Shown here in pieces: positions 719-30,223 of a DNA stretch of 35,957 bases (positions are counted from its first letter, which is position 1; the number at the start of each line of letters is the position of its first letter). Both the position numbers and the translations under genes were made by a program. The stretch comes from an uncultured Clostridiaceae bacterium (GTDB taxonomy: Bacteria > Bacillota > Clostridia > DUPQ01), in contig CAYYXJ010000006.1 of NCBI GenBank assembly GCA_964475455.1, forward strand, positions 1-35,957. Reading direction: 5' to 3'. The notes beneath the pieces were generated by a model that did no database searches, was not told the origin of the DNA, and saw only the letters and a list, made by a program, of their open reading frames with translations.

Positions 719-743
719 AGTCACTCTTTTACATTCCAGTTTA

Positions 744-1631: not shown

Positions 1632-1635
1632 CTTC

Positions 1636-2520: not shown

Positions 2521-3557
2521 TTATTTAACCTTGCTTCCTTAAAAACTGAATATAAATGAATCGGCAGTAAAATTACTGGCAATGTAATCCTGTTGAAAAA
2601 ATAAATGGACCGAACAAAAGTCATGGTTCTTTTTTTAATTTTATCTGTGTTTACCTTTCCTGATTCAAGCATGTTTTTTACCATATCAGCCAGAACAAGG
2701 GTTTTCTCAATTCTCTCCCCTAAGGGGATTTTTTCTGTGGAAGTTACTTCCCTGTAACATGAAAAAGCCAGAGCTCTGAATTCCCACTGTTTTATTGCCG
2801 ATTCTATTACTCCTTCAGGCAGCCTGCTTTTTACAAGAACCCTCATTTTTTCATTGACAACCTTCCCTACGGTATCAACTGAATTCGGATCTCTTCTTGA
2901 TGACAGACTTGATGAGTACTTAACATAATTATATAGGGGCAGTCTGATATAACTGACATGGTTGCAATAAAGTAAATATTCCATATTAAAGACAATATCA
3001 CTATTGACTATGGCTTTTTCAGAAAATTCAATTTTATTCCCGGAAATAATTTTTGTCTTATACAACTTGCTCCAGCATGCAGAAAGAATATTATATTCAG
3101 CAAGAAACGCCATCAACTTATCTGAACTGCCCTCTTCATTCAATAATGCCGGTTCAAAATCCTCCAGATATCTCTCCAACCCTTTGTTCCCTGAAATTTC
3201 CTTACAACCGCAAACCGCAAGGTCCGCCCCTTTCGATTCCAAAGTTTCCTTTAATTTCATTAGATAATCAATTTCACACCAATCATCAGCATCAATAAAT
3301 GTGGCATATTCACCGGTCATTTGGGAAATAGCTGAATTCCTGGCTGTACTTACATTGCCGTGTTCCATCTGCAATACAATTATCCTGGAATCCAAATTGC
3401 TGTAGTTTTTCAGGATTCTCACCGAATCATCAGTAGACCCGTCGTCGACTGCTATAACTTCAAATTCCCTGTATGTTTGGTTCAAAAGACTTTCAATACA
3501 TCTCTCCAAATATTTTTCTGCGTTATAGACCGGAAGTATTATACTGATTTTTTTCAT
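2517..3557 (-). CDS. Family 2 glycosyltransferase (GT-A fold)
   Basis: ISIILPVYNAEKYLERCIESLLNQTY, VIAVDDGSTDDS and FIDADD (DxD) motifs. TAATG overlap with the upstream gene. Confidence 0.85.
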   Translation of the reverse strand: MKKISIILPVYNAEKYLERCIESLLNQTYREFEVIAVDDGSTDDSVRILKNYSNLDSRIIVLQMEHGNVSTARNSAISQMTGEYATFIDADDWCEIDYLMKLKETLESKGADLAVCGCKEISGNKGLERYLEDFEPALLNEEGSSDKLMAFLAEYNILSACWSKLYKTKIISGNKIEFSEKAIVNSDIVFNMEYLLYCNHVSYIRLPLYNYVKYSSSLSSRRDPNSVDTVGKVVNEKMRVLVKSRLPEGVIESAIKQWEFRALAFSCYREVTSTEKIPLGERIEKTLVLADMVKNMLESGKVNTDKIKKRTMTFVRSIYFFNRITLPVILLPIHLYSVFKEARLNK

Positions 3558-4651
3558 TATGTTCCAAACCTCTCATTTGTTAGCATGGTATACAATTCCT
3601 TCAGTTTATCCATATAAGTATTCTTGTCATATTTTTCATCAATGAACCTTTTTGCAGCCAGTGATATCCCGTCAATCAGTTTTTTATTTCTCACCAAATA
3701 CTCAAGTTTTCTGACGAAAGCCTTATAGTCACCGGATTCGCAGGTCCATCCATTGACACCGTCTTCAATGATTTCAGGGATAGCCCCTGTTGCCATAGCC
3801 AATATCGGTGTTCCAACCGACATAGCCTCAAGAACAGTCAGAGGGAGCCCTTCATACCTGGATGGCAAAATAAGCAAATCAAAGGACTTCATCCATTCAT
3901 AAGGATTTTCACAATAACCTTCAAATTTAATATTCAACCCGTTGGATAGCTCAATCAGCATATCTTTCATACTGCCTTTTCCCACTACATGTATCATAGT
4001 ATGTTCCCACAGGGTTGATTTTTGTAACTTAAGTTCACTTAAGAAAGCATCAAGGCCCTTCTGGTATTCAAGCCGACCGATGAATCCGATTCTGAATTTA
4101 TCTTTGTCACTGAAAACAACTCCTTCGCCCGCTCTGCTATTATTGAATTTCACATCTGTAAAGTTATCCATGACAATGACACCTTTTATCCTATTGAAGT
4201 AAGGTGCATGCTTCATATAATAATCTCGTGTAAGTCCTGAACAAAAAATGTTTGCCGAATATCTGGTTCTGAAAATACTGTCCACGAGTTTATGCAGACC
4301 CGTTTTTTTTAAGTACGGATAAGAATTATGTATATGAGATACTATAATAGGTTTCTTCTTTAACCCGGGAACAGCAATATATGATATAAGGGAAGCCTTG
4401 TTATCGTGTGCATGGATAATATCAGGTTTATAATCATCTGCAATTTTTCTGATTATCCCGGATTTCAAGGAAGACAAAGCAACATATTCAACACCCATCT
4501 CTTCAAGAGTTTTTCTAATGGGTCCGTCCGGTGAAGTATAAATAATGTCAAACCCCTCTTGAGTCAGGTTTTTACATATTTCAACTGCAATTTTTTCTGC
4601 GCCCCATAGATTATTCGAACCCAGCACATGTATTATCCTAATTTTTCTCAT
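3557..4651 (-). CDS. Family 4 (GT-B) glycosyltransferase
   Basis: C-terminal EGLPLTVLEAMSVGTPILA block (E-x7-E region) and N-terminal MRKIRIIHV...GAEK typical of GT4. Confidence 0.8.
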   Translation of the reverse strand: MRKIRIIHVLGSNNLWGAEKIAVEICKNLTQEGFDIIYTSPDGPIRKTLEEMGVEYVALSSLKSGIIRKIADDYKPDIIHAHDNKASLISYIAVPGLKKKPIIVSHIHNSYPYLKKTGLHKLVDSIFRTRYSANIFCSGLTRDYYMKHAPYFNRIKGVIVMDNFTDVKFNNSRAGEGVVFSDKDKFRIGFIGRLEYQKGLDAFLSELKLQKSTLWEHTMIHVVGKGSMKDMLIELSNGLNIKFEGYCENPYEWMKSFDLLILPSRYEGLPLTVLEAMSVGTPILAMATGAIPEIIEDGVNGWTCESGDYKAFVRKLEYLVRNKKLIDGISLAAKRFIDEKYDKNTYMDKLKELYTMLTNERFGT

Positions 4652-5777
4652 CCAAACACCTATTATATAGTCTCAACATTTCCTTAACCAACTGGCTTTT
4701 TTCATACTCAGGAACTTTATCCCTATTGAAAGTTCCCATAATTTGCCTTTTATCAGAATCATCAATTAACTTAACAATTTCATTACGAAATTCATTGGCA
4801 TCGTCAAATGGAACAAGGCAGCCACCCTTTCCATCGGCAATAAGATCCCTGTTACCGCGTATATTAAAACAAACAATGGGAAGCCCCGTTGCCATTGCTT
4901 CGATAATATTTACCGGAAGCCCTTCCTGTCTTGATGCTGATACATATATATCCGAATTTTTCATCAGCCTCTTTATATCAGTACGGAATCCGAGAAAATG
5001 AACTTTATCCAAAATCCCCTTTTTAAAAGCAATTTCTTTATATTTATCCGTGTAAGAACCTTCTCCCGCAAGAATCAGATGAACCTTTGTTTCAGTATTC
5101 AGATCAGCAACCAACCTTATCAAAAAGTCCTGATGCTTTCTATAACTCATTTCGCCTGCAAACACTAAAACAATGCTGTCATTGGGTATATTCAGTTCAT
5201 TTCTAAATGCCATTCCATCGGGATCCGAGTAATTTATAAACTGCTCTGTGTCAATTCCAACCCCGTTCATTTTTTCCACCCACCTGCATTTAAAAGTTTT
5301 TGCACGATGATAATCCTCATCATTTATAGTAATTATCAAATCCGTGAGCTTTGCCAGAATTCTCTCAGCCGGATAATAAAACATCCAGTTTACTGCTGAA
5401 GCACCATCGAAAAAGTGAAAACCATGTGCGGTGTAAATAACCTTACTTCCTTTTTTCCTTGCTTTTCCGGCAGCAAGCCTGGCCAATGCTCCGCCTATGG
5501 GGGTATGGCAATGTATAATGTCATAATTCCCTGAATCAATGATTTTCTTTAATTTAAAATATGCTTTTATATTTCGGGGATGAATAGGTATTCTATGAAA
5601 TGAAACATCAAAGAAAACATCACACCCGGGAATAACACAATCTTCCTTATCTTTATAGTCATTTGATGCACAGACATTGACTTCATATCCTTTTGCTTTC
5701 AACTCAATAAAAAACGGAATATGAAATAAATTTATATGAAGTTTTACCTTGGATGCCACATACAGTACCTTTTTCAT
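4638..5777 (-). CDS. Family 4 (GT-B) glycosyltransferase
   Basis: EGLPVNIIEAMATGLPIVC block. Start placed at ATG 5777 (MKKVLYVASK) rather than 5819, because the extra 14 codons overlap a promoter-like TGgTATATA element. Confidence 0.8.
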   Translation of the reverse strand: MKKVLYVASKVKLHINLFHIPFFIELKAKGYEVNVCASNDYKDKEDCVIPGCDVFFDVSFHRIPIHPRNIKAYFKLKKIIDSGNYDIIHCHTPIGGALARLAAGKARKKGSKVIYTAHGFHFFDGASAVNWMFYYPAERILAKLTDLIITINDEDYHRAKTFKCRWVEKMNGVGIDTEQFINYSDPDGMAFRNELNIPNDSIVLVFAGEMSYRKHQDFLIRLVADLNTETKVHLILAGEGSYTDKYKEIAFKKGILDKVHFLGFRTDIKRLMKNSDIYVSASRQEGLPVNIIEAMATGLPIVCFNIRGNRDLIADGKGGCLVPFDDANEFRNEIVKLIDDSDKRQIMGTFNRDKVPEYEKSQLVKEMLRLYNRCLDEKN

Positions 5778-5809
5778 ATTGTTGCAATCCTTTTCTATAC
5801 AAAACATAT

Positions 5810-5818
5810 TATATACCA
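5810..5818 (-). promoter_or_regulatory. Extended -10-like element (TGgTATATA) in the 80-nt gap upstream of GT4 gene 4638..5777
   Basis: The reverse strand reads aaTGgTATATAat about 35 nt upstream of ATG 5777. No good -35. Motif only. Confidence 0.3.
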
Positions 5819-5899
5819 TTCATCCGGATTAGTTTTCTGATACAAAAAACCTTATCAGCATCAACCTTAAATATTCCCGGTTTCACCAGGTCTTTTTTG

Positions 5900-6409
5900 T
5901 TAAGTTGAACTATTATTAATACTTCTTCGAACGCCGATATAAATAGTGAGCAAAATCATAAAATAAGCCAGAACCATCCCAAGGCTGTCAAAAATTATGT
6001 CCTTTAGCTGAAAACCTCTTCCATCAACAAAAATCTGAATGGTCTCATCAGCCATTATAATAATAAAACCGTACAAGAAGGCATAAGCCGGGAAATTTAA
6101 TATTCTTTTAAAAGATTGCAAGGCCCTGCTGACCAGGATATAAAGGACGAAAAATTCAAAAATATGTGCAGCATTTCTTATGTCGTCCACTAAATTGACT
6201 TCTATGTATCTCATCATACGTGTAGGAGTCACATCGCCATAAATGGTCTTGGTAATTTTAATGAATATTTCTACAAAAACTCCTGATTGCTCAAGTGATT
6301 CGGTGGCTGTTTGAAGAGAATTATAAAAAATAAACCCGGTCCAAAGTATCCCGGCCAGTATGAATGCAATATCAATTATTTTATTTAAGCTTTGTTTTTT
6401 CCTTTTCAT
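5900..6409 (-). CDS. VanZ-like family membrane protein
   Basis: Four hydrophobic segments and the VanZ-type block ADETIQIFVDGRGFQLKDIIFDSLG (DE..Q....R......D...G). ATGA overlap with the wzx stop. Confidence 0.65.
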   Translation of the reverse strand: MKRKKQSLNKIIDIAFILAGILWTGFIFYNSLQTATESLEQSGVFVEIFIKITKTIYGDVTPTRMMRYIEVNLVDDIRNAAHIFEFFVLYILVSRALQSFKRILNFPAYAFLYGFIIIMADETIQIFVDGRGFQLKDIIFDSLGMVLAYFMILLTIYIGVRRSINNSST

Positions 6410-7902
6410 TGAAACTCCTTGTTTATTTCCTGATTATAACCAATGCTACCCCTGTTCAGTATGTCCCATTTTTTCTTTAGATATTTAAAATATATTCCAA
6501 AATAAATCAAAAGCCATAACACCCCGAATATAATGGATTCCGCAATCTGTCCCAGCAATAAATCCAATTTAATATATCTCCCCAGCAAAAAGAATATGGC
6601 TCCGAAAGCAATATTGACAACACTGATATAACCCATGCTTTTCCAAGGAAATATCACCTTGAATTCACTTCCGGTTAACCTGACGGTGGCTCCAAGCTGA
6701 AAAAGAGCAAATATTGCGAATGATATCAAAGTTGCTATGGCAGGTCCAACGAACCCTAATAATGAATACAAAGCAAGACTTATTACAATATTCGCACCAA
6801 TTGACAACAATGTACTGTAAAAAATGTATTTTGTTTTTCCCATGGAATTTATAATTATATTAAATGTAGTAACATTCAATATAAGAATTAAACTGTAAAT
6901 TCTGAACACTGTAACACCGGGGAGATATTTGGGTGAATATAATATTGAAATAATCTCAGGGGCATAAACAATCAAAGCTACCGTAAAAAAGCACATGAAT
7001 ATATATGATAATTTTATTGATTCTCCCCATAATTCAATAGCCTTGCCTTTTCTTTTTTCCTTGATCAACAGTATTATCCTTGGAAGTAATGCAGATGCAA
7101 TTGAAATTCCCACAAGATTCAAAGGCAGTTCCCTGGCTGCATTTGTATATATTGCAAGGTTTTCTGTGGAAAAAAATCTACCGATAATAAGTTTGTCTAT
7201 ATTTTTATTAATGCTGCCCAGGGTCGAAGACAAACCAATTGGAATTGAATATTTAAGCATGTTCAACATGAGTTTGGAATTAAAGTTCATTACAAATCCA
7301 CCGGAAACATAGGAGGCGATAAAATATACAATCAATGCGAAAACAGCTTCGATGACAATGAACATTATCATATAAACATAAAAATCAAGCTGCAGTATCA
7401 GGGTAATTGCAACAGCAATAAGAATCAGCAAACTGTGGGATACTTTGTAAAATATCAGCCATGTAGTCTTATTGTAAACAATAAGTATGCTTGTTATTGA
7501 ATTAAATACTGTCCTGGCCCATGGAAACAGCGCAATTATCAGTATAATCTTTCCCAGCATTGGATTTGAAAAATAATTTATAAGAAAAGGCTTCATCACC
7601 AGAATTATTATGCCTGTCAAAACCCCGAGGACTGTCGTGGAAAGCAGATTCATATAAAGAAACTGCCGCTTATCCAGATCAGTGGTTCCCCTTGTGAGAA
7701 AATATGAAATACTCGCAGGGATACCAAGCATTGCAAGGGGAGCAACAATCTCTGCGATTATATAAATCTGTGAATATGTACCGTACTCTCCCAAAGTTCT
7801 GAATCGTGAAAGAAGCATGGCAGAAATCATACCTATCAAAAGGGAACTCATCTGAGAAATTGTCAGTTTAAGGCTGTCTTTACCTATGTTTCCTCTATCC
7901 AT
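6406..7902 (-). CDS. wzx: Wzx-type oligosaccharide flippase (MOP superfamily polysaccharide biosynthesis protein)
   Basis: 498 aa, roughly 12-14 hydrophobic segments and no soluble domain. The N-terminal pattern LLIGMISAMLLSRFRTLGEYGTYS is typical of polysaccharide flippases. Confidence 0.75.
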   Translation of the reverse strand: MDRGNIGKDSLKLTISQMSSLLIGMISAMLLSRFRTLGEYGTYSQIYIIAEIVAPLAMLGIPASISYFLTRGTTDLDKRQFLYMNLLSTTVLGVLTGIIILVMKPFLINYFSNPMLGKIILIIALFPWARTVFNSITSILIVYNKTTWLIFYKVSHSLLILIAVAITLILQLDFYVYMIMFIVIEAVFALIVYFIASYVSGGFVMNFNSKLMLNMLKYSIPIGLSSTLGSINKNIDKLIIGRFFSTENLAIYTNAARELPLNLVGISIASALLPRIILLIKEKRKGKAIELWGESIKLSYIFMCFFTVALIVYAPEIISILYSPKYLPGVTVFRIYSLILILNVTTFNIIINSMGKTKYIFYSTLLSIGANIVISLALYSLLGFVGPAIATLISFAIFALFQLGATVRLTGSEFKVIFPWKSMGYISVVNIAFGAIFFLLGRYIKLDLLLGQIAESIIFGVLWLLIYFGIYFKYLKKKWDILNRGSIGYNQEINKEFQ

Positions 7903-7903
7903 T

Positions 7904-9016
7904 TCAATCCTTCATTCCTATATAAAGCTCTTCAAGCTTACTTGCTTCATTTTTAATATCAAATCCTTTTATTTTCAACTTTTCTAATGCTGAGCATCTC
8001 TCATAGGGAGTTTTCAGTACTTTTTGTATTTCATCCGCCCAATTCCCAGCACTTGATTCCAGTTTTAATATCTTTAATAAGTCTGCAGGATTTGATTCCT
8101 CTGTCAGATTATCTGAAACGATGCATCTAAGACCGGAGGCCTGTGCTTCAATTAAAACCAATGGCAATCCTTCATTAAAAGAGGTAAGGACAAACAAGTC
8201 AAAGACCTGATAAAGGCTGACAACATCATCCCGGCATCCCAAAAAGAGAACCTTGTCCTCAATATTCAGGCTCTTAGCTTTTTCCCTCACGGATTCCATC
8301 AGTCTGCCTTGACCCACGAGAACAAGCTTTGCCTCGGGAACCACTTCCAATAGTCTATTGAATACTTCAATCATAAATCCATGGTTCTTGAAAGGAAGGA
8401 AGTTCCCTACATTTCCCAGCACAACATTATCTTTAAGCCCTAAACTTTTTCTGACTTTTAGACGCTCATCCGGATTGTATTCAAATGCCTCAATATCTAT
8501 GGCATTATTTATCACTGTAACTTTTCCTTTTTCACTTTTCTTTATACCATAAAGGATGTCTCCGGCTATCTTTGAACAGGCAAAATAATGTGTTGATATC
8601 AGATTCAAAAATCCAATGATACTTTTACTAAAAAACTTCAAAACCGGATTATGTGGTAAATAAGAATTGTGACTGTGCGATATCCTGATCTTTGCACCAC
8701 TCAATAAAGCCGTAAAAAGTATTAATACATTTCTGAAATTCATATGACTGTGCACTATTCTATATCTGTTCTTTCTAATTATCTTACTTAATCTAACATA
8801 GAATTTAAAACTATCTGTCAGGGCACCTATCTTGTGAATCTTCCCTCCCAAAGATATTATTTCATCATCAAAAACATCCTGTTCAGATGCTTCTACAGCA
8901 AAATCAAACTGAACTCTGGACCTGTCAATATTCCTGTAATAATTCATAAGCATCACAGGCACTCCACTCCGGTTCATACCCATAAATACATGTAAAACCC
9001 TGATAGGTTCATTCAT
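7904..9016 (-). CDS. Family 4 (GT-B) glycosyltransferase
   Basis: EGLPLVLIEAQASGLRCIVSD block. The start overlaps the upstream stop by 8 nt, with a GGAGG 9 nt upstream. Confidence 0.8.
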   Translation of the reverse strand: MNEPIRVLHVFMGMNRSGVPVMLMNYYRNIDRSRVQFDFAVEASEQDVFDDEIISLGGKIHKIGALTDSFKFYVRLSKIIRKNRYRIVHSHMNFRNVLILFTALLSGAKIRISHSHNSYLPHNPVLKFFSKSIIGFLNLISTHYFACSKIAGDILYGIKKSEKGKVTVINNAIDIEAFEYNPDERLKVRKSLGLKDNVVLGNVGNFLPFKNHGFMIEVFNRLLEVVPEAKLVLVGQGRLMESVREKAKSLNIEDKVLFLGCRDDVVSLYQVFDLFVLTSFNEGLPLVLIEAQASGLRCIVSDNLTEESNPADLLKILKLESSAGNWADEIQKVLKTPYERCSALEKLKIKGFDIKNEASKLEELYIGMKD

Positions 9017-10085
9017 TTACCTGAACCTCCTCGACAAGTTTTGACCAGCTCATGACAACTGTTTTGGAATCATATTTTAACAAAGTTTCATATGCGCTTC
9101 TCCCCAGGTTATTTCGCATAACCGGATTATCTATCATATCCATCATTGCAACCTTCATCTGATCCACATCATTAACCCTGACAATATATGCATTATCATT
9201 ATTTACTATCCCCTCATGCCCAGGTAAATCAGTCGTGATGCATGGCATTCCAATAGCCATAGCTTCCATCAATGCATTGGATTGCCCTTCATAATCTGAG
9301 GATAAAACAAAAGTCTCGCATTCCAGTATTTTTGTATGTATACCATTTACAATTCCGGGCAAAAATACTTTTTCAGAAATACTAAGTCTGTTTATTAAAT
9401 TTTCTAAATCTTTTCTAAGCGGTCCTTCCCCATAAATGTAAAGTCTGTATTCGGGGTATTTTTTTAACAGCTCTGCAAAAGCCTTTATCAGCATGCTTTG
9501 ATTTTTCTGGGGAGCAAGCCTTCCAACATTAACAAATGCTTTTTCAATAACTTCAGGTTTCTTCAAATCATATGGACCTATGGGATTGGGAATCACTATA
9601 CTCTTATCCCTGATTTTGCCGTTGAAAATATTCCTGGCATATTCAGACTGAAATACCACGGCATCTGCCATGGGATATAAAACGCGGGTTGCCATTCGGG
9701 TTAAAAAGCCCCTTCCGTCTCTTTTGGGATCATTTCTTTCAGATACTATGACCGGCAGCCCGGTTATCAGATTTGCCACCAATGCGACAGTATTCACTCT
9801 GGCTATAAATGATATTACAACAGCTTCACTCTTTTTTGATTTTTTGAATTCACGGACCAACGCAATAATCCAGTAAGGAATTTTCAAAAACCTGAACTTG
9901 TCTTTCTTAGACAAATTAACAATTTGTATAGAGCTGTTGATTTCATATTCTTGTTGCCCTGAAAGCAATGTTATTATTTTAACCTTATTGTCGCAGGAAA
10001 AACTATTGGCCAGAATAGAGATGACTCTCTCTCCTCCGCCTTTATCCAACTTTCCTGATATAAATATAATTTCCCTGTTTTTCAT
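9009..10085 (-). CDS. Family 4 (GT-B) glycosyltransferase
   Basis: N-terminal FISGKLDKGGGERV and C-terminal EGQSNALMEAMAIGMPCITTD. Confidence 0.8.
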   Translation of the reverse strand: MKNREIIFISGKLDKGGGERVISILANSFSCDNKVKIITLLSGQQEYEINSSIQIVNLSKKDKFRFLKIPYWIIALVREFKKSKKSEAVVISFIARVNTVALVANLITGLPVIVSERNDPKRDGRGFLTRMATRVLYPMADAVVFQSEYARNIFNGKIRDKSIVIPNPIGPYDLKKPEVIEKAFVNVGRLAPQKNQSMLIKAFAELLKKYPEYRLYIYGEGPLRKDLENLINRLSISEKVFLPGIVNGIHTKILECETFVLSSDYEGQSNALMEAMAIGMPCITTDLPGHEGIVNNDNAYIVRVNDVDQMKVAMMDMIDNPVMRNNLGRSAYETLLKYDSKTVVMSWSKLVEEVQVNE

Positions 10086-19765: not shown

Positions 19766-21406
19766 TTATCTTATTTTCAATGCTTCATTAATATAGTTTT
19801 CAAGCTTAACTAATATTTGAAGTCCATCACTTTCTTCAAGGTCATTCATCTTTTTTTTAACAAAATCATGCATGCATGATTTTATGCTGTCATTGGACTT
19901 ATTAAAAGCTTCAATAAACATTTTACTATATTCTTCATCATATTTTATCATTGGGTTTTCATCGTCTTTATAATTCAACGGATATTTGATGCCGAAGGTC
20001 AGCCCAAGCCACAACAAATCAAATAAAGAAAGCTTTACAACCATTCTCATGCGCTTGCCTGACATTGAATATTTATTCCCCGGAATTTGGGTTATTGCAT
20101 CTATATCCCCGTTGTATCTTCTGTCATTCAATTTGCCGCCAAAAATCAAAGGTTGTTCTTTATTAATGAATTCAATGATCTCAATGGCCTGTGAAGAGAC
20201 ACTTTTGTTGATTCTTGGTATTTCAAGCTCACACAGCTCCCCCGTTGGTATTCCAAGTTTCATAATAAAATAGCCGACGGGACCGAACTCATGGGTCAAT
20301 GTTTCCTCAAATTTATAAACCGATATGCATTTTTTCCCAAATATCATAATCGCCCTTATCAGTCTTCGGAAATAAATATTGGAATAGACCATCAAAAGCC
20401 TTTTTTTGCTGAAAGAATCACCCATTCTAACTGCTTGCTGATAACCGGATGAAGCATAACCAGGAATTGAACGCACACAGTAAAGTATGTCGATTTTGGC
20501 ATCCGGCATAAGAGTTTTTATGAGCTTTTTAAAAACCTTAAGTTCATTGAAATGAAACCCGCATATACCTTCGCCATAGAAAATATAAGTTTCCCGGCGG
20601 CATTCTTTTACCCCTTTGCACAATGCAGAAAGATTCCTCATATTATACCGGGCAACTTCATCCTTATCATGTCCGGACACAACATGCCAGTAGATTTTAT
20701 CCGGTTTCTTATGAACCAGGCTCTTAAGCGGAACAGAATGATTGTCCGAACCCCAATTTGTCCTGTATTCATGTGAATTTTTATTAAGCCATTCCCTGTT
20801 GCGTGATAAAAATACCTGTATTGAAGTGGATGCGGTTTTGTCCATTCCCATTTGAACAACAACTTTTTTGATACCGGAATTTGAATAATGTTTCATGAAG
20901 TTTAAGATCCATGTCTTTTTTTTCGATTTTATCCTTTCAAGTGAATCGTTCGGTTGATTATTATCTAAACCGAGAAAATAATTGCTTATTCTGTGAAAAA
21001 TCTCCAGCTCATCCCCATTGGTTGTGTTTTGAATTTTTTCAAGGATAAATTCATGGAAAACACCTTTTAAAAAGTCATTCAGTTTGTCATAGGCTCTGGT
21101 GCAATCATTGTAATACACTTCATCATAAACAGGTTTTAAATCCTCCGCTTCCCATGTATTGGCTGTATAATCTATACCAAAATTGTTCTTTAGCCAGAGG
21201 ATGTCAGGCTTTGCCCTTTCAATTATTTTTTCATTGATATCATCAGAAAGCCTGAATCTGACACCCGTAATTTCCTTCAAAGGGAATATATCCTTAAGTT
21301 GTCTATACTTGTTTCTAATTCCTTTGTTAATTGCAGGATACTTTTCATTGATATATTCCATTATTTCAATGGCATTTTTCGATAATGCTGTATTTTCCCT
21401 GTGCAT
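19766..21406 (-). CDS. Divergent sulfotransferase-like protein, pair 2; the ORF is [tail of upstream paralog] + [core] + [tail]
   Basis: The core has QMGMDKTASTSIQ and YCVRSIPGYASSGYQ. The first ~185 aa (SKNAIEIMEYINEKYP...DILWLKNNFGIDY...) repeat the ORF's own C-terminal tail (SSQAIEIIEFINKEQP...DLLWLGLTFGIKY...). No Shine-Dalgarno precedes ATG 21406. Confidence 0.5.
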   Translation of the reverse strand: MHRENTALSKNAIEIMEYINEKYPAINKGIRNKYRQLKDIFPLKEITGVRFRLSDDINEKIIERAKPDILWLKNNFGIDYTANTWEAEDLKPVYDEVYYNDCTRAYDKLNDFLKGVFHEFILEKIQNTTNGDELEIFHRISNYFLGLDNNQPNDSLERIKSKKKTWILNFMKHYSNSGIKKVVVQMGMDKTASTSIQVFLSRNREWLNKNSHEYRTNWGSDNHSVPLKSLVHKKPDKIYWHVVSGHDKDEVARYNMRNLSALCKGVKECRRETYIFYGEGICGFHFNELKVFKKLIKTLMPDAKIDILYCVRSIPGYASSGYQQAVRMGDSFSKKRLLMVYSNIYFRRLIRAIMIFGKKCISVYKFEETLTHEFGPVGYFIMKLGIPTGELCELEIPRINKSVSSQAIEIIEFINKEQPLIFGGKLNDRRYNGDIDAITQIPGNKYSMSGKRMRMVVKLSLFDLLWLGLTFGIKYPLNYKDDENPMIKYDEEYSKMFIEAFNKSNDSIKSCMHDFVKKKMNDLEESDGLQILVKLENYINEALKIR

Positions 21407-21417
21407 TTCAAGGTTGA

Positions 21418-22239
21418 TTAACTTGCAGGCAAACCTATTTTATCTATGAAGTAACCAACCGGTCCATAAATGTGATTAACAGCATCTTCAAACTTGTATA
21501 CTGATAACCTGTCTTTTCCAAAAACCTTCACAGCATTTTTAATTCTTTTTTCATAAATTCCGGAATAAATATTCACTGTGTCGTCACAATTCTGAAAGCG
21601 ACCGGTTTTCATTGCCTGCTGATATGCCGAAGAAGCATACCCGGTATTTGACCTGGTGCAATACATCAACTTAATCCCGGCCTCCGGCATAAGGGCTTTG
21701 AGCAAATCCCGGAATCTCATGAATTCTTTTTGTGTGAAGCTGCATATTCCTTCACCATAAAAAATATATGTTTCAAATGGACACGCCCTTATACCTTTGC
21801 ACAAAGAAATGAGATTTCTATAATTATATTCTGCAATCTTTCGTTTATCATATCTTCTCAATATATGTTCCTGTATTTTTTCAGGCTGTTCCCTTAGTAG
21901 ACTCATTATTGGAACAGAATGGTTTTCAGTACCCCAGTCGCTTTTATAATCAGCCGAATGACTGTGCAACCAGTCCTGATTTTCCACGAGAAAATGCTGA
22001 ATTGTTGTTGAGGCTGTTTTATCCATTCCGATTTGTATAAAAACCCGTTTAATCCCGTTATTGGCATATGATGCCAGATATCTTTTGGCATTATATGTTT
22101 TAAAGTACTCTTGTATGCATTTTTCTTCACTTTTAGGCATACCGAAAAGCATGAATTTAAGATTCATAAGTGGATAAAATATTCTTTTTGATAAAACACT
22201 CCTGAACCTCTTGAAAAAAATTGATACAGCTTTCTCCAA
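21418..22239 (-). CDS. Divergent sulfotransferase-like protein, pair 2 core only (tail displaced into the next ORF by a frame change)
   Basis: QIGMDKTASTTIQ and YCTRSNTGYASSAYQ. It ends at ...VGYFIDKIGLPAS, where the paralog continues. Start tentatively set to the in-frame TTG at 22239, 10 nt after GGAGGGG. The track start at 22419 would sit 5 nt from the divergent sortase gene and adds a Cys-rich, non-protein-like extension. ATG 22167 is an alternative start. Confidence 0.5.
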   Translation of the reverse strand: MEKAVSIFFKRFRSVLSKRIFYPLMNLKFMLFGMPKSEEKCIQEYFKTYNAKRYLASYANNGIKRVFIQIGMDKTASTTIQHFLVENQDWLHSHSADYKSDWGTENHSVPIMSLLREQPEKIQEHILRRYDKRKIAEYNYRNLISLCKGIRACPFETYIFYGEGICSFTQKEFMRFRDLLKALMPEAGIKLMYCTRSNTGYASSAYQQAMKTGRFQNCDDTVNIYSGIYEKRIKNAVKVFGKDRLSVYKFEDAVNHIYGPVGYFIDKIGLPAS

Positions 22240-22269
22240 ATTTAAAACACCCCTCCATAAATCATGTTT

Positions 22270-22278
22270 ATTATAGCA
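22270..22278 (-). promoter_or_regulatory. Extended -10 element TGCTATAAT, candidate primary promoter of the glycan operon
   Basis: The reverse strand reads catatGCTATAATaaacatg, followed about 14 nt later by GGAGGGG (22256-22250) and the in-frame TTG at 22239. Confidence 0.45.
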
Positions 22279-22369
22279 TATGAAATGAGCCTGTTTTCTC
22301 CCGGGTAAGCCTGAATAATCTGATTTAGCAGAACAGACACACAGCCTCCGGGGAAATAACATGTTTGGG

Positions 22370-22398
22370 TTACACAAATTCCCATCAGATGATAATAT
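22370..22398 (+). promoter_or_regulatory. Sigma-A-like promoter TTACAC-17-TAATAT for the sortase module
   Basis: Exact 17-nt spacer. Lies about 27 nt upstream of ATG 22425, with the RBS AAGGGGGA in between. Confidence 0.45.
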
Positions 22399-22424
22399 AT
22401 TAGTCAAAGGGGGATTCATTCTGA

Positions 22425-23183
22425 ATGACGGCGACAGAGAATACCCGGTATCCAGGAAAAGAAAAACATCGCAGATTTAAAGCCTTATCCGGATTTTTGA
22501 TAGGCAGCATTCCCTATATATTGTTTTTGGTCAGCCTGACTTTAATCAGCATGGGGTTTTTCAGATATGTGGAAAATCAATCTGTACTTGCACTCTTTCT
22601 GACCGACCGAGGCAAGGCAGTGTCAATTGAGTGGGATGGAAAAAGCTGGGCTGAATCTGTTCCAACTCCTGCCTTGGTTGCAACCAGGGAACCACATCAA
22701 ACTGTAACACCCCGGAGTACGCCGGAACCTCTTATCGAACCCGAACCCGAAAGATTCATTGTACCTTTCTTTTATATCGGGGATAAAATCGGAACATTGA
22801 AAATACCCAGTGTTGACCTAGCTGTTGATGTTTTTCAAGGTGACAGGGAAGCTGAGTTGCGGCTTGGCGCAGGACATTATACCGGTTCATATCTACCCGG
22901 ACAGGATAACAACATTCTCATAGCCGGACACCGCACAACCTACTTCCGTAGTTTTGAATATCTGGAAGTCGGTGCCGCAATAACATTTACAACCACCTAC
23001 GGAATTTATGAATACATTATTGAGGAAATAAAAATAATTGAAGGGACAGACAATTCAGTGGCAGAAGAAACAGTCGGTGAACAGCTGACCCTATATACCT
23101 GCTACCCCTTCATTTACTTTGGAAATGCTCCCAATAGATTCGTTGTAATATGCCGTTTGGCAGAAGAGCAGGTCAACCCATGA
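22425..23183 (+). CDS. Sortase family transpeptidase (class not assignable by eye)
   Basis: N-terminal basic stretch plus a TM segment (FLIGSIPYILFLVSLTLISMGFF) and a Pro/Glu-rich linker. Catalytic His in LIAGHRTTYF, TLxTC Cys in LTLYTCYP, and a downstream Arg (NRFVVICRL). RBS AAGGGGGA upstream. Confidence 0.8.
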   Translation: MTATENTRYPGKEKHRRFKALSGFLIGSIPYILFLVSLTLISMGFFRYVENQSVLALFLTDRGKAVSIEWDGKSWAESVPTPALVATREPHQTVTPRSTPEPLIEPEPERFIVPFFYIGDKIGTLKIPSVDLAVDVFQGDREAELRLGAGHYTGSYLPGQDNNILIAGHRTTYFRSFEYLEVGAAITFTTTYGIYEYIIEEIKIIEGTDNSVAEETVGEQLTLYTCYPFIYFGNAPNRFVVICRLAEEQVNP

Positions 23184-24058
23184 AAAAACTTCCGAAAACT
23201 TTAATATCATTAATATTATGTATTCCGGTTATCATCGGCATCCTGGGGTTTGTTGTGATTTCCACCATCAATTCAACGATTCTATCAGAAGACTTCTATT
23301 TAAATGTCTCTGATTCGGATGTTTATTCCACAAAGGTGATGAAAGCAATTGAAAATGATGTACAGGCACAAAGCAGTTATGTAGGTATACCTTCCGGAAT
23401 TCTTCTAAAAGGGTTTGAATTACAGATCCTGCAGAAATATCTCAATGAATATATGCTTAATACAGTAGATTTCATGAACCTTCGGACTGATTACATACCA
23501 ACGGTTTTCCCCGTGGATTTCTTCCTGCCGGCTTTGACTGAATTTTTAGAGGAAGATGCTGAATTGAATTCCTACATCCCCTCATCAGAACAATATGATT
23601 TATTGAAGGTTGTGGCAGCAGACACTTCGCACATTATAGATAAGCATATTGACCTTTTCCAGCTGAATATGTTTAAAAATGTCGGATTTTTCAGGCAGGC
23701 ACATAAAATACTATATCAAATAAGCCGTCTTGGACTTCCTGCACTTTGGATACTGCTGCTTGCTGGTTCCTGTCTGGTACTTCTTCACCGTAAAAACCTG
23801 CACATCTGGCTTTTTTATCAATTCACATCCTTTTGGATATTTGGAAGCCTGCTTACCATCCCTGTGATTGTTCTTGAAGGTTACCGACTTACACGACGAA
23901 TTGCCATAGAATTGCCTTATCTCAAATATGCGGTGGATATGTTTCTGACAAACATATCCATGCATCTATTATATCGGGGTCTTTTGATTTTCCTTCTATC
24001 TTCAATGGGGCTGATATTAAGAAATTTTAAAGAAAATCGCTTTTATCATAATAGTTGA
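23180..24058 (+). CDS. Polytopic membrane protein of unknown function, translationally coupled to the sortase
   Basis: Start ATG 23180 (MKKLPKTLISLIL) overlaps the sortase TGA (ATGA). It has one N-terminal TM segment, a ~190 aa predicted extracytoplasmic region, then 3-4 C-terminal hydrophobic segments. I recognise no family. Confidence 0.6.
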   Translation: MKKLPKTLISLILCIPVIIGILGFVVISTINSTILSEDFYLNVSDSDVYSTKVMKAIENDVQAQSSYVGIPSGILLKGFELQILQKYLNEYMLNTVDFMNLRTDYIPTVFPVDFFLPALTEFLEEDAELNSYIPSSEQYDLLKVVAADTSHIIDKHIDLFQLNMFKNVGFFRQAHKILYQISRLGLPALWILLLAGSCLVLLHRKNLHIWLFYQFTSFWIFGSLLTIPVIVLEGYRLTRRIAIELPYLKYAVDMFLTNISMHLLYRGLLIFLLSSMGLILRNFKENRFYHNS

Positions 24059-24083
24059 TATTATAATCATTTAACTGTATAAT
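24055..24083 (+). promoter_or_regulatory. Near-consensus sigma-A promoter TTGATA-17-TATAAT upstream of the small secreted protein gene
   Basis: The -35 overlaps the TGA stop of the upstream gene. Exact 17-nt spacer and a perfect -10. Implies a ~55-nt leader before ATG 24146. Confidence 0.55.
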
Positions 24084-24145
24084 CTATATCAAACAGAGCA
24101 TACATTTTTTATAGAGAGCATATACAAGTTAGAGAGGGAGAAATT

Positions 24146-24655
24146 ATGAGAAAATCAATTTTAATCGTTGTTGTTTCTGTAGTTATTTTGCTTGCATTTT
24201 CAATTACAGCTTCAGCAGCAACAGTTAATGACATCCTGCAGTCACTTCGTGACGCAGGTGTGCCGGAGGTTTATGTCCTGCAGGCTGAATCATATATGGC
24301 TGACAAAACAATTACTTCAACAACTGCCGATGCGGTGATAACCCACATAACCAACGCAGCAACCATTGCAGACGGAGAAACCAAGATTTCTGTTCTTACG
24401 GGAGAACAAAAATCCGGTATAGCAGTTGAATTTGCTGCTGCATGCGCACTGTTGAATCTAAGGGCAGAATTCGGCGACCACAACCTGACAGTTTACGACG
24501 AAAGCGACAACATTGTTTTCATAGTAACTTCTGAAGAAGCCATTAAACATACCGGCTATGATTACAATCTGATTTTATACGGATTTATACTGCTTGCACT
24601 TTCCGCAGCTTCAGTTTTTGTAACAAAAAGAATATTGCTCCAACGGAACTCTTAG
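24146..24655 (+). CDS. Small secreted protein with a cell-wall-sorting-signal-like C-terminus (IKHTG + hydrophobic segment + basic tail)
   Basis: Strong RBS GAGGGAG. Signal peptide MRKSILIVVVSVVILLAFSITASA|A. The C-terminus reads EEAIKHTGYDYN-LILYGFILLALSAASVFV-TKRILLQRNS. Confidence 0.6.
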   Translation: MRKSILIVVVSVVILLAFSITASAATVNDILQSLRDAGVPEVYVLQAESYMADKTITSTTADAVITHITNAATIADGETKISVLTGEQKSGIAVEFAAACALLNLRAEFGDHNLTVYDESDNIVFIVTSEEAIKHTGYDYNLILYGFILLALSAASVFVTKRILLQRNS

Positions 24656-24711
24656 AGATTTACAGACTATAATCCAAAACCGCTCTTAATATAATTTTAT
24701 TAAGTAGAGTG

Positions 24712-24744
24712 AGCCACTGAATAAAACCGGTGGTTCTTCTTTTC
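24712..24744 (+). terminator. Rho-independent terminator candidate after the sortase-module genes
   Basis: Stem AGCCACTG / CGGTGGTT (8 bp including two G:U pairs), an 8-nt loop, then CTTCTTTTC. Confidence 0.45.
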
Positions 24745-27811: not shown

Positions 27812-28930
27812 CTAGAGTCTTTTTTCGCCTTCCAGCCTTTGTATCTGCGTAATGTCCTGGGTTATTTCAAGGGTTCCAAGATAATTTCCCGAGCCGTCCC
27901 TGACTGCACTGTACTTGATCAAGACCTTTTTGCCATGATGTTCTATCCAGAACTCCGCAATATTGCTTTCATTATTTTTAAAACCCTCAAGGATAGCAGT
28001 TACTGCATCCATGCTTTTTGGTGGATGGCAGTTCTGAACCTTTCTGCCAATAACCGATCCCGAACGCGGGAATATCCTTTCACCTTCTGAAAAAAATGCG
28101 ACTTCATCCTTTTCGTTTACGAAAGTTATATCAAATGGCAGAGACCGCAGTACCCCGTCAAGCTGCTGCTTGTTCAATCCCCCGTTTGAAGTTAGTGTAT
28201 GCTTTTCCGGGTCCAAAGAGCGCTCAACAAAGGCATATCCAAAGACATCAGCCTGTATTTGCATGCCATCCATGACCTCCTGCGGAATCCATGATGCAGC
28301 CGCCGGAAAAAGCAGAAGCTCCTGTTTTTGAACCAGCCCGTAGAACATGAAATAAAGCTCTCCCAGTAATTCAACAAACCGTCTTTGTGATACCTGCTCA
28401 CCTTCAAAAAGCATCCTGGCATCACGGACCATTCCTCGGGCTTTGTCATGCATGGCCCAAAGCATTGCAAGACCTTCAAACATTGAATCTCTTTTTTCAA
28501 GTTCAGGGAATAGAATATTCTCAAGTTTCAATAACTGAACATTGTAATCTGAAAGTTTGCCAATAAAATAAAGCCACCCGCTTCGTTGCGGCGCATCGGT
28601 GCTTTTTCCCCTGGATTCTTTATACTCTTCAAGATGCTTTACCAAACCTATGTTTTCTTCCATCAGATAGTACAAAAAGGTCCCCTCTGCAGGTTTTTCC
28701 CATTGGTATAAGGATAATTTGTTGTGAAGCAGATTCATGGCCTTGCCTATCACAGGCAACATATCCTCTGGTTTGCCTGATTCCTGCATCAGTCTGTGCA
28801 TTACCCGAAAAACATCATCAGGCAGTACGGGCAGACTGCTCTTTGAAAGATTGCCATAGACCTCCTTTATCGGCTCGCCGTTTTTCATCTTGCTGATCAA
28901 AGAATAAATTGTATCTTCGGACAATCCCAC
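27812..28930 (-). CDS. PAS-domain sensor protein, paralog of the DUF438 protein (divergent N-terminus)
   Basis: The C-terminal 120 aa match the upstream gene almost block for block: DITFVNEKDEVAFFSEGERIF.R...IGRKVQNCHPPKS...FWIEHHGKKVLIKYSAVRD..GNYLGTLEITQDITQIQRLEGEKRL. GTG start with an AGGGGG RBS. Confidence 0.6.
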   Translation of the reverse strand: MGLSEDTIYSLISKMKNGEPIKEVYGNLSKSSLPVLPDDVFRVMHRLMQESGKPEDMLPVIGKAMNLLHNKLSLYQWEKPAEGTFLYYLMEENIGLVKHLEEYKESRGKSTDAPQRSGWLYFIGKLSDYNVQLLKLENILFPELEKRDSMFEGLAMLWAMHDKARGMVRDARMLFEGEQVSQRRFVELLGELYFMFYGLVQKQELLLFPAAASWIPQEVMDGMQIQADVFGYAFVERSLDPEKHTLTSNGGLNKQQLDGVLRSLPFDITFVNEKDEVAFFSEGERIFPRSGSVIGRKVQNCHPPKSMDAVTAILEGFKNNESNIAEFWIEHHGKKVLIKYSAVRDGSGNYLGTLEITQDITQIQRLEGEKRL

Positions 28931-28960
28931 ATCAACCCCCTATGAATATTGAACAACAGA

Positions 28961-30223
28961 TTATGACATCAGTCGTTTTTCACCTTCCAGCTCAGTTATG
29001 TTCTTTATGTCCTGGGTTACTTCCAGAACACCGAGAAACTCATTTTTCTTGTTCCTGACAGCAAAATACCTTATGTATACAAAGGCCTCGCCCATATGTA
29101 TCCAGAAATCTTCATGGTCCTTCCTGCCCGCACGTAAATCCTCAACAATCTTCTCCACGACATCAACACTCTTCGGAGGGTGACAATGCTTTACTTCCCT
29201 TCCGATGATGGTTACGGGCCTTTCGAAAATGCGTTCCTTACCCTGGGTGAAGTATTTAACCCTGTTGTCAGCTCCTACAAAAGTCATATCAAGGGGAACG
29301 GTATTAAGTATAGAATTCACTTCTTCAGCGGTCAGCATTCCTGCATCAAAGGCTATTTTAGACACAGAGTCCTTACCAACAAAGTCGGGACCACCAGGTT
29401 TAACTTCGGTTGGTTTTTCATTCTTCCCATTATCAGCCGGGTTTTCGGGCTGCCATCTTTTCACACTATCAATAAGGGTGTAACCGGCTGCTTCGCCCGA
29501 TTTTTCTATATCAACCCATTCTGAATCCGTGAATAAATCAGCTATCATAGGAATCATTATTTCTTCTTCCTTGAAGATCATATCCTTGATGCGAACAGAA
29601 AGACTCTGGATGTCATCAAGTGTCTTACCGGGATTGGTTTCACCGGATAACAGGCCTTCAATGACTTCCTTGAGTTCTTCCCTTATTTCATCATCCACAC
29701 CCCACATGACCTGAGGCGGTGCAGTTATGTTATATTTCTCCATGAATGGAAATATGTGGTTTTCCTTGCGGCTGTAATGCACATCAATGGTCTGAAGTCT
29801 TTTAAGTGAAACAAGTAGCTTTTCCTTGTTTTCCTTTGAGCTGTCAACAAGATAGTCCCCTGCATTTATCATGACAACATCGTCAATCAAGTTCTCAATG
29901 GCGCGGTTTTCCGCTTTGATAGTATGAATTGGATGACCTTCCCTGTCCCATGGCTTTGCTACATTAGTAACTGCATGAATTTCCTCGATGGATCCCTTGA
30001 ACACAGCCGCATGCACATCACAAAGCCGCTGTATTTCTGAAACCGGCATTCCCTCATTCACCAACGCCTGTTCCATCTCGGTTATTTCGGTAGGTGAAAC
30101 ATTGATTGTAAGTTTGTTGAAATCTTCCTTGACCGATTCTACGGATTCTCCGTCATGGAGCCTTTTAATTAACTCCCCAAGCTTCTTCTTCTTAAACTCC
30201 CTGTTATTGATCAGTTCACTCAT
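28961..30223 (-). CDS. DUF438 / hemerythrin-like / PAS domain protein
   Basis: N-terminal DUF438-type block (KKKLGELIKRLHDGESVESVKEDF...ISPTEITEMEQALVNEGMPVSEIQRLCDVHAAVFKG). C-terminal PAS-like block (DMTFVGADNRVKYFTQGKERIF...CHPPKSV...EGEKRL). Confidence 0.7.
   Translation of the reverse strand: MSELINNREFKKKKLGELIKRLHDGESVESVKEDFNKLTINVSPTEITEMEQALVNEGMPVSEIQRLCDVHAAVFKGSIEEIHAVTNVAKPWDREGHPIHTIKAENRAIENLIDDVVMINAGDYLVDSSKENKEKLLVSLKRLQTIDVHYSRKENHIFPFMEKYNITAPPQVMWGVDDEIREELKEVIEGLLSGETNPGKTLDDIQSLSVRIKDMIFKEEEIMIPMIADLFTDSEWVDIEKSGEAAGYTLIDSVKRWQPENPADNGKNEKPTEVKPGGPDFVGKDSVSKIAFDAGMLTAEEVNSILNTVPLDMTFVGADNRVKYFTQGKERIFERPVTIIGREVKHCHPPKSVDVVEKIVEDLRAGRKDHEDFWIHMGEAFVYIRYFAVRNKKNEFLGVLEVTQDIKNITELEGEKRLMS

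Follow-up and report, generated by a model that had tools for sequence, protein, structure and literature searches.

A class D sortase with an adjacent gene for its dedicated substrate is already known. In Bacillus anthracis the class D sortase SrtC and its dedicated substrate BasI, whose sorting signal is LPNTA, are encoded in the same operon (PMC3208642), and in Clostridium perfringens the class D sortase CpSrtD is clustered with a presumed substrate, an LPQTGS protein (PMC4498605). The case dealt with here is a cassette of three genes at positions 22,425 to 24,744 of a 35,957-nucleotide (nt) stretch of DNA from an uncultured Clostridiaceae bacterium (contig CAYYXJ010000006.1), the whole stretch being referred to below as the window. 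The cassette encodes a class-D-like sortase, a membrane partner with four helices and a small secreted acidic protein. It is a conserved three-gene unit of uncultured Clostridia and, with a protein that has a KxTG-type tail beside its sortase and membrane partner, appears to have been undescribed so far.

The B. anthracis SrtC, also named BaSrtD (PDB 2LN7), is the best relative of the window sortase in the Protein Data Bank (PDB), and in both systems sortase and dedicated substrate are in one operon. However, the LPNTA signal of the BaSrtD system has a proline, no conserved polytopic membrane partner is described for it, its linkage is to sporulation rather than to glycan loci and the two substrate families are not demonstrably related. 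CpSrtD (PDB 4D70) is clostridial, the second-best PDB relative (3e-11) and, like the cassette, has a Gly after the Thr of its signal; unlike the cassette, its motif is of the canonical Leu-Pro type and no partner protein is reported. Closer in its signal is the LPxTATN system, with the LPXTAT carbohydrases of B. cellulosilyticus and the NCBIfam models NF058671 and NF058670. Most cassette sortases reach the NF058671 cutoff, and the two signals have the same layout, T-[AG]-x-[ND]-x-Y-N-x-L-L-x-G with a membrane segment and a basic tail. The cassette differs in having one small dedicated substrate where the LPxTATN system has many enzymes, and in its conserved membrane partner.

Proline at the second motif position is not absolutely required by sortases, as evident from the C. 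difficile SrtB motif NVQTG (PMC5118464) and the L. monocytogenes and B. anthracis SrtB motifs NAKTN and NSKTA (PMC3208642). These are minority substrates of class B enzymes, whereas in the cassette family Lys at that position is the consensus. With regard to accessory proteins, SafA of Actinomyces oris is a small transmembrane protein that is genetically linked to SrtA, is needed for its stability, contacts it via an FPW motif and protects it from signal peptidase (PMC9282373). GspA of the same organism, a substrate of a sortase, bears a glycopolymer attached by LcpA, a LytR-CpsA-Psr (LCP) enzyme (PMC6381275). The parallel of SafA and GspA to the cassette is a functional analogy only, not one from comparison of sequences, and one related cassette (L020 below) is directly followed by an LCP gene. 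In contrast to SafA, the cassette partner has 292 amino acids (aa), about four membrane helices and a helical ectodomain, and its sequence has no FPW. To our knowledge, SafA is the only precedent of a membrane factor linked to a sortase. What appears to be new in the cassette is the proline-less signal with a Lys consensus, the large unannotated family of substrates, the strictly co-inherited polytopic partner and the habitual placement with capsule or exopolysaccharide genes.

The cassette and its proposed function

The features of the cassette in the window, all on the forward strand, are as follows.

22425-23183, + strand: open reading frame (ORF) of the class-D-like sortase, 252 aa, matching Pfam Sortase and NCBIfam NF058671
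23180-24058, + strand: ORF of the membrane partner, 292 aa, of no Pfam or NCBIfam family
24055-24083, + strand: promoter-like TTGATA-17-TATAAT, 11 of 12 positions matching, the best of the region
24134-24140, + strand: Shine-Dalgarno-like GAGGGAG, seen in the sequence itself, with 5 nt between it and the ATG at 24146
24146-24655, + strand: ORF of the small secreted acidic protein, 169 aa, with signal peptide, mature domain and sorting signal
24542-24568, + strand: sorting motif IKHTG-YDYN, aa 133-141 (IKHTG alone is aa 133-137, 24542-24556)
24569-24652, + strand: hydrophobic segment (aa 142-159) and basic tail (aa 160-169), read directly
24711-24736, + strand: terminator-like hairpin, then a T-rich run, closing the cassette

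The stop codon of the sortase gene, TGA at 23181-23183, overlaps the ATG of the membrane-protein gene at 23180-23182, as ATGA. This overlap, and a strong ribosome-binding site for the 169-aa gene, had been pointed out in the original prediction, a reading made from the letters of the window alone, and both are present. So are the other elements it named in the small protein, a signal peptide cleaved at ASA-A, the motif IKHTG, an 18-residue hydrophobic segment and the tail TKRILLQRNS. Its near-consensus promoter fared less uniformly. A site that matches at 11 of 12 positions is there, but the number of promoter-like sites in this AT-rich region, 8, is not above the 8.9 expected from shuffled controls, so that the match is not independent evidence and was dropped as evidence standing by itself; a promoter at 24055-24083 is plausible.

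The proposal favored here, with a probability of roughly 0.65, is of a dedicated sorting system. The small acidic protein would be exported by Sec, lose its signal peptide after ASA and stay in the membrane through the hydrophobic segment and basic tail at its C-terminus. The adjacent class-D-like sortase would recognize [IVL]-K-x-T-G-x-[DN]-Y (here IKHTGYDY), cut between Thr136 and Gly137 via a Cys226 thioester and link the protein to an acceptor amine, the likeliest one being in the cross-bridge of a peptidoglycan precursor, as with class D sortases. The 292-aa membrane protein would be an obligate accessory, be it scaffold, stabilizer or gatekeeper of the sortase or of its substrate. Because such cassettes are as a rule located in capsule or exopolysaccharide loci, a role of the anchored protein in the assembly or display of surface glycan is probable.

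The small secreted protein and its family

The 169-aa protein has a signal peptide (aa 1-24, cleavage after ITASA and before Ala), a mature part of about 110-112 aa with a net charge of -11 (the family median is -5) and a C-terminus made up of IKHTG, YDYN, the 18 hydrophobic residues LILYGFILLALSAASVFV and the tail TKRILLQRNS; the peptide EEAIKHTGYDYN spans the IKHTG. It has a signal peptide and, right at the C-terminus, the tripartite layout of LPXTG-type proteins, in which motif, hydrophobic segment and basic tail follow each other. In place of the consensus L-P-x-T-G itself the window has I-K-H-T-G, and TIGR01167 has no match to the window protein.

What had first been seen as a one-off pair of sortase and substrate is instead a family. 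When 1.84 billion cluster representatives were searched exhaustively with a profile, 511 representatives of the small protein were obtained at E<=1e-3, and 128 at E<=1e-10, so that the family has at least 511 cluster representatives. Nearly all members are of 165-190 aa and match across the full length. Word-indexed searching, with nine matches for the small protein and four for the membrane protein, and a 64-sequence profile, with 20, badly underestimated the families. No Pfam or NCBIfam model covers the domain of the small protein, with members matching assorted sorting-signal models weakly. A cultured carrier of the cassette family is Clostridium sp. 19966, whose member, WP_315674482.1, is labeled 'hypothetical protein' in RefSeq. 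For the small protein AlphaFold2 predicts helices plus a three-stranded sheet, with only modest confidence (predicted local distance difference test score, pLDDT, 66), and neither Foldseek (best E 0.2) nor a sequence-profile search of the PDB found a PDB relative.

A possible relative is TIGR04383 ('processed acidic surface protein', a Bacillus LPXTA family). The window protein is not matched by it; three distant family members reach 19-22 bits against a cutoff of 50, two of the matches covering most of the protein, and this likeness, being below cutoff, is a lead only. It is nevertheless what can be said for a version of events in which the sortase is mainly a processing protease that cleaves between Thr and Gly, hydrolyses the intermediate and frees the small protein into wall or medium. 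Sortases do hydrolyse acyl intermediates when a nucleophile is unavailable. However, we know of no sortase system that works by release in vivo and, as signal peptidase alone is enough for secretion, retention of a three-gene system would be hard to explain, making release highly improbable.

Conservation of the sorting signal

Conservation was counted in 121 aligned family representatives with pairwise identity of at most about 50%. The most conserved mature positions are Thr136 (119/121) and Gly137 (111/121), on a par with Ala24 of the signal-peptidase site (118/121). Position 133 is Ile, Val or Leu in 105 and position 134 is Lys in 83, with Pro there in just two. Asp (71) or Asn (27), together 98, occupies position 139, Tyr140 is present in 55, and Gly146, within the hydrophobic segment, in 73. 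In the nine close relatives from the word-indexed search K134, T136, G137, D139 and Y140 are invariant. Motif, hydrophobic segment and Lys/Arg tail are present in essentially all members and, these conserved positions together with the shared layout of the tails give [IVL]-K-x-T-G-x-[DN]-Y as the consensus of the family, ahead of a membrane-spanning segment and a basic tail. A lone T-G ahead of a C-terminal membrane segment is by itself weak evidence; that Thr136 and Gly137 are conserved like the signal-peptidase site across diverse relatives makes the motif more than chance, and the bond between them is the predicted scissile one. The unusual xKHTG motif of the original prediction thus stands as to its lack of proline and its Lys, which is the consensus, but its His is a minority state at the third position.

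The extended signal is in register with class D LPxTATN signals that have been studied experimentally (LPDTATNLYNYLLIG versus IKHTGYD-YNLILYG). The LPXTAT proteins of B. cellulosilyticus have tails such as LPDTATNLYNYLLIGLL, then a basic tail (PMC3617157); the window tail is IKHTGYD-YNLILYGFILL..., then a basic tail. Common to both are the Thr, a small residue next to it, Asn or Asp at +3, Tyr-Asn and a Gly within the hydrophobic segment. The window signal is best read as being of the class D LPxTATN type with [IVL]-Lys for Leu-Pro, a replacement that would account for its scoring only 16 bits against 32 with the signal model NF058670, where the match of the window protein is limited to the membrane-segment part. 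Some family members carry MKKTATNYGN, MAQTATNYGN or NTTATNYG. These TATN-type members match NF058670 from profile position 1-4 through 31-32 with 19-28 bits, under the cutoff of 32 because Leu-Pro, and nothing else, is missing, and through them the family grades continuously into the recognized class D signal.

Among genuine ORFs of the window no other sorting-signal-like tail was found. Full-text literature searches for KxTG-type motif strings returned nothing relevant.

Linkage of the three genes

Genomic context was gathered for 17 distinct related loci (designated L with a number). A genome scan with a narrower alignment had provided eight loci, this low number being due to use of the motif itself as search pattern, and a metagenome scan with the membrane protein had provided two, one of them already known. 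Of the 17 loci, 16 count as having an intact sortase gene with that for a membrane-protein homolog beside it, and the seventeenth, L007, has a 3′ remnant of the sortase gene; in L026 the position of the sortase is off the contig. The small protein is present in every one whose relevant position is on the contig (in L024, found via the membrane protein, the sortase and membrane-protein genes are followed by the contig end). Hidden Markov models (HMMs) from our own alignments confirmed sortase and membrane-protein neighbors in all eight genome loci. The divergence covered is deep: HMM E-values of the membrane-protein homologs run from 6e-145 to 4e-4 and substrate identity goes down to 25-40%.

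Two gene orders occur. Sortase, membrane protein, substrate is the order in L001/L002, L005, L008, L010 and L013-L018, with substrate identity down to 33%, and also in L019, L025 and, with its sortase position off the contig, L026. In three distant members, L020 (tail NTTATNYG), L021 (FVQTGYDY) and L022 (261 aa, VEDTGYD), the substrate gene is first, followed by those for sortase and membrane protein. L019-L022 each have a family-less neighbor, 270-297 aa long, that is homologous to the window partner (E-values of 2e-17, 9e-16, 1e-9 and 4e-4), and the sortases there match too. In L013 a GGDEF-EAL gene is inserted between the membrane-protein gene and the small gene.

The special case is L007, a contig of a metagenome-assembled genome, in which the last 47 or so sortase codons (E 8e-24) remain directly upstream of the membrane-protein gene (L007 1-430) and are preceded by an unrelated small ORF, the membrane-protein and small genes looking intact. 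Either the sortase gene is truncated or the assembly is chimeric; the pair may therefore work without an adjacent sortase, or the contig may be degraded or chimeric. For the small protein of this locus the database entry (P0008, 151 aa) begins too late, an in-frame start (MKKIISITLMVLVLVMG) being present upstream.

As linkage is kept over deep divergence and through rearrangement, the three genes are inherited together. Synteny in other genomes had been chosen beforehand as a finding on which a dedicated system would stand or fall; it held in the related loci, in both gene orders. Together with the motif being the most conserved mature feature, it supports the dedicated sortase-substrate pair initially proposed.

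The same data bear on whether the C-terminus is a membrane anchor only, with K-x-T-G-x-D-Y being a juxtamembrane contact for the partner and the sortase processing proteins encoded elsewhere. The lack of proline, the sub-threshold scores with sorting-signal models, the retention of the other two genes beside the truncated sortase gene of L007 and a co-occurrence of the membrane partner that is as strict as that of the sortase are what would be expected. However, the sortase gene stays with the pair over deep divergence, whichever of the two gene orders is present, the residues conserved are exactly the Thr-Gly of a scissile site in register with class D LPxTATN signals, the basic tail and spacing are as in sorting signals and there is no alternative substrate in the window. 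An anchor with no sorting function is, on balance, decidedly unlikely.

The sortase

The sortase domain of the enzyme matches Pfam PF04203 (3e-25, 88.8 bits against a cutoff of 26.6, aa 125-245). His169 (in IAGHR), Cys226 (TLYTC) and Arg238 (APNRF) line up with the residues that are catalytic in B. anthracis SrtD (PDB 2LN7), in keeping with the intact His, TLxTC Cys and Arg recognized at the outset, and are invariant in five orthologs. The layout is of an N-terminal membrane anchor (aa ~22-46), a juxtamembrane segment FFRYVENQSVLALFLTDRG, a Pro/Thr-rich linker and the catalytic domain (aa ~118-245).

Classification with class-specific HMMs, one of the checks envisaged originally, ranks class D models first. 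The best PDB relatives, 2LN7 (BaSrtD, specific for LPNTA, 4e-14) and 4D70 (C. perfringens SrtD), are both of class D, and the signature TCYPFxYxGxAPxR is common to the window sortase and BaSrtD. NF058671, for class D sortases specific for LPxTATN, gives 141.2 bits with a cutoff of 140, and seven of ten cassette sortases from other loci pass it too (140-183 bits), all ten being under the cutoff of the generic class D model NF033746. Models for classes C, E and GN are far below those for class D, class C giving 51 bits with a cutoff of 160. From its class D relatives in the PDB, the borderline pass with NF058671 and the failure with NF033746, the window sortase is class-D-like as judged by sequence, at the edge of the LPxTATN-specific group. 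Assembly of a pilus by the sortase was also considered and is rejected, as the sortase is not of class C and the modeled substrate lacks an Ig-like pilin fold; it has no match to a pilin family.

For co-variation of enzyme and signal, cassette sortases were aligned with BaSrtD and two places compared, the stretch before TLxTC, which aligns with the β6/β7 specificity loop, and the residues that come next to the catalytic His on its C-terminal side. The 11 sortases with [IV]K[QH]TG substrates mostly have D-N-S-[VI]-A-x-x-T, with some variation, and all have HRT[TSNG] after the His. The two whose substrates have TATN-like tails (L019 and L020) have [ST]-x-I-I-x-K-S and HRDT, as in BaSrtD, and score highest on NF058671 (177 and 183 bits). 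That these segments vary with motif type is how co-evolution of enzyme and signal would look, and is suggestive only because independent contrasts are few.

A separate feature of the KxTG-group sortases, within window 22488-22780 (aa 22-118), is the strong conservation of the juxtamembrane segment, with N51, S53, L55, F58 and D61-R62-G63 invariant, ahead of a variable Pro/Thr-rich linker of about 40 aa. It is absent in the shorter sortases of L019 and L020. The segment is a candidate for the contact site of the membrane partner.

The membrane partner

In the partner, one membrane helix at the N-terminus is followed by a helical ectodomain (about 120-150 aa, AQSSYVGIP being conserved in close homologs) and then by about three more membrane helices at the C-terminus. 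It was originally taken to be of an unrecognized family, and it does lack a Pfam or NCBIfam match, also with 16 homologs scanned singly (Pfam gave scattered noise only). In an AlphaFold2 model from only four sequences the ectodomain (aa 45-165) is all-helical with a pLDDT of about 90, and the C-terminal membrane block is poorly modeled; Foldseek (best E 0.4) and sequence-profile searching found no PDB relative. Across the 16 homologs only Ile57 and Pro228 are nearly invariant. Given that no polar residue is invariant, an enzymatic role is judged unlikely, and the partner is probably an obligate but non-catalytic component that may be a scaffold, stabilizer or gatekeeper for sortase or substrate.

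Ordinary anchoring systems offer nothing comparable to an obligate membrane partner, which speaks for another possibility, that the sortase, though cleaving between Thr and Gly, uses an acceptor other than peptidoglycan: an amine of lipid-linked or nascent polysaccharide, or a lysine of either the partner or a second copy of the small protein, which in the latter case would lead to a polymer. The embedding of the cassette in capsule or exopolysaccharide loci and the conserved lysines K134, within the motif, and K89 (present in 78/121) speak for it too. On the other hand K89 is replaced in about one third of members, the predicted fold is helical rather than Ig-like with no pilin motif, the class C score is far from its cutoff, the partner ectodomain has no invariant polar residue and the cited characterized class D sortases anchor proteins to peptidoglycan (PMC3208642). 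Such an acceptor is judged unlikely, and transfer to a peptidoglycan precursor is retained in the dedicated sorting system.

Surroundings of the cassette

Most cassettes are within or beside capsule, exopolysaccharide or wall-glycan loci. Neighboring genes are listed here by locus, upstream and downstream being relative to the cassette.

Window, divergent strand: two paralogs of no known family, two GT1 glycosyltransferases, two ORFs with no Pfam match, an ATP-binding cassette (ABC) exporter, an FkbM methyltransferase and a TupA-like ATP-grasp protein
Window, downstream: GFO/IDH/MocA oxidoreductase and RmlB-like dehydratase
L001/L002: two GT2 upstream; MurJ-type flippase and phosphoglucomutase downstream
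L005: GT1 and VanZ upstream; rmlA and rmlC downstream
L007: Wzz, CpsD-like ATPase and CpsB downstream
L008: TupA-like ATP-grasp
L013: GT1 upstream; heparinase II/III downstream
L015: epimerase and GT2 upstream; YfhO and nucleotidyltransferase downstream
L017: NusG-like, Bac_transf, epimerase and GT1 downstream
L018: Wzz, CpsD-like and CpsB upstream; CapD, NusG-like and Bac_transf downstream
L020: LytR_cpsA_psr directly after the cassette
L021: VanZ
L025: CpsD-like upstream; CapD, DegT and Bac_transf downstream
L026: helix-turn-helix protein, Bac_transf, epimerase and two GT1 downstream

Recurrence at the regulatory and initiating end of Wzy-type polysaccharide loci would seem to be far above chance expectation. 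The connection to glycan that was proposed for the window cassette has thereby gained comparative support, but not a mechanism. One that may be envisaged is that the small acidic protein is a carrier or primer for the polysaccharide of the locus, that the partner couples it to glycan export or ligation and that the private sortase fixes the resulting glycoconjugate to the wall; the proline-less KxTG signal would then keep the housekeeping sortase from interfering. It is modeled on the transfer of glycan by LcpA to GspA in Actinomyces and is rather unlikely.

Some other features of the surroundings merit mention. The two adjacent ORFs divergent from the sortase gene in the window (19766-21406 and 21418-22419, both on the reverse strand; 546 and 333 aa) have no Pfam or NCBIfam family. 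They are paralogs with 51% identity over 219 aa and a common GIK[KR]VxxQxGMDKTASTxIQ stretch and, at the head of a glycosyltransferase operon, may be unrecognized glycan-modifying enzymes. The protein inserted in L013 (3359-5836) is an 825-aa 7TM-PAS-GGDEF-EAL protein, and a GGDEF protein is encoded immediately upstream of the cassette in L022 (173-1186); these GGDEF genes are a hint of control by cyclic di-GMP, as in many exopolysaccharide systems. VanZ-like membrane genes, by Pfam, flank the cassette in L005 (4690-6025) and L021 (3348-3842), a fragment of an IS66-family transposase gene being between two VanZ-like fragments in L005, and L024 (2531-3043) has at the same position a small membrane ORF that is VanZ-like by eye only. 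A type IV prepilin-like gene, odd for an exopolysaccharide locus, separates the regulator genes after the cassette from the gene for the initiating sugar transferase in L017 (7979-8368, FTLVELIIV seen by eye) and L025 (8451-8822, Pfam N_methyl). Unrelated to the cassette are two tandem hemerythrin/PAS_10 proteins, one with DUF438, encoded in the window at 27812-30223 on the reverse strand, and a pair of this type is kept at the same position, downstream of the glycan region, in L001/L002. The L019 cassette (584-9191, tail LLAKTSTKNY) is amid genes for GmrSD, NERD-HRDC, SocA_Panacea and PRiA4_ORF3, of defense or mobile type, a placement which suggests that the module can move as a unit.

Points that weigh against the proposal

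A number of points argue the other way from a dedicated sorting system connected to surface glycan. The motif is without the proline that nearly all characterized sortase signals carry, and the window protein is under the cutoff of every NCBIfam sorting-signal model, with the LPxTATN signal model giving 16.3 bits against 32. Its sortase fails the generic class D model NF033746 with 133.4 bits against 165 and passes NF058671 by only about one bit, and the co-variation of sortase and motif comes from few independent contrasts. L007 keeps the membrane-protein and small genes beside a truncated sortase gene. Some cassettes are outside glycan loci, namely L019, among the defense genes GmrSD, NERD and SocA, and L022, with GGDEF, MIP and integrase genes; the short L010 is a further exception to the glycan context.

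Implications

If the proposal is correct, the repertoire of sortase signals gains [IVL]-K-x-T-G-x-[DN]-Y, with Lys where nearly all known signals have proline, and this proposed signal is backed by a family with no fewer than 500 sequence clusters. A strictly co-inherited polytopic partner would be an experimental handle both on sortase specificity and on membrane organization, and a sortase that reads K-x-T-G would be an orthogonal tool for protein ligation. The recurrence of the cassette in capsule and exopolysaccharide loci of Clostridia, including lineages from gut and digesters that are known from metagenomes only, points to a possible protein-mediated step in the display of surface glycan. 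Should the small protein indeed be a carrier for the polysaccharide, the organisms that bear the cassette would have a sortase-dependent route for attachment of their capsule or exopolysaccharide.

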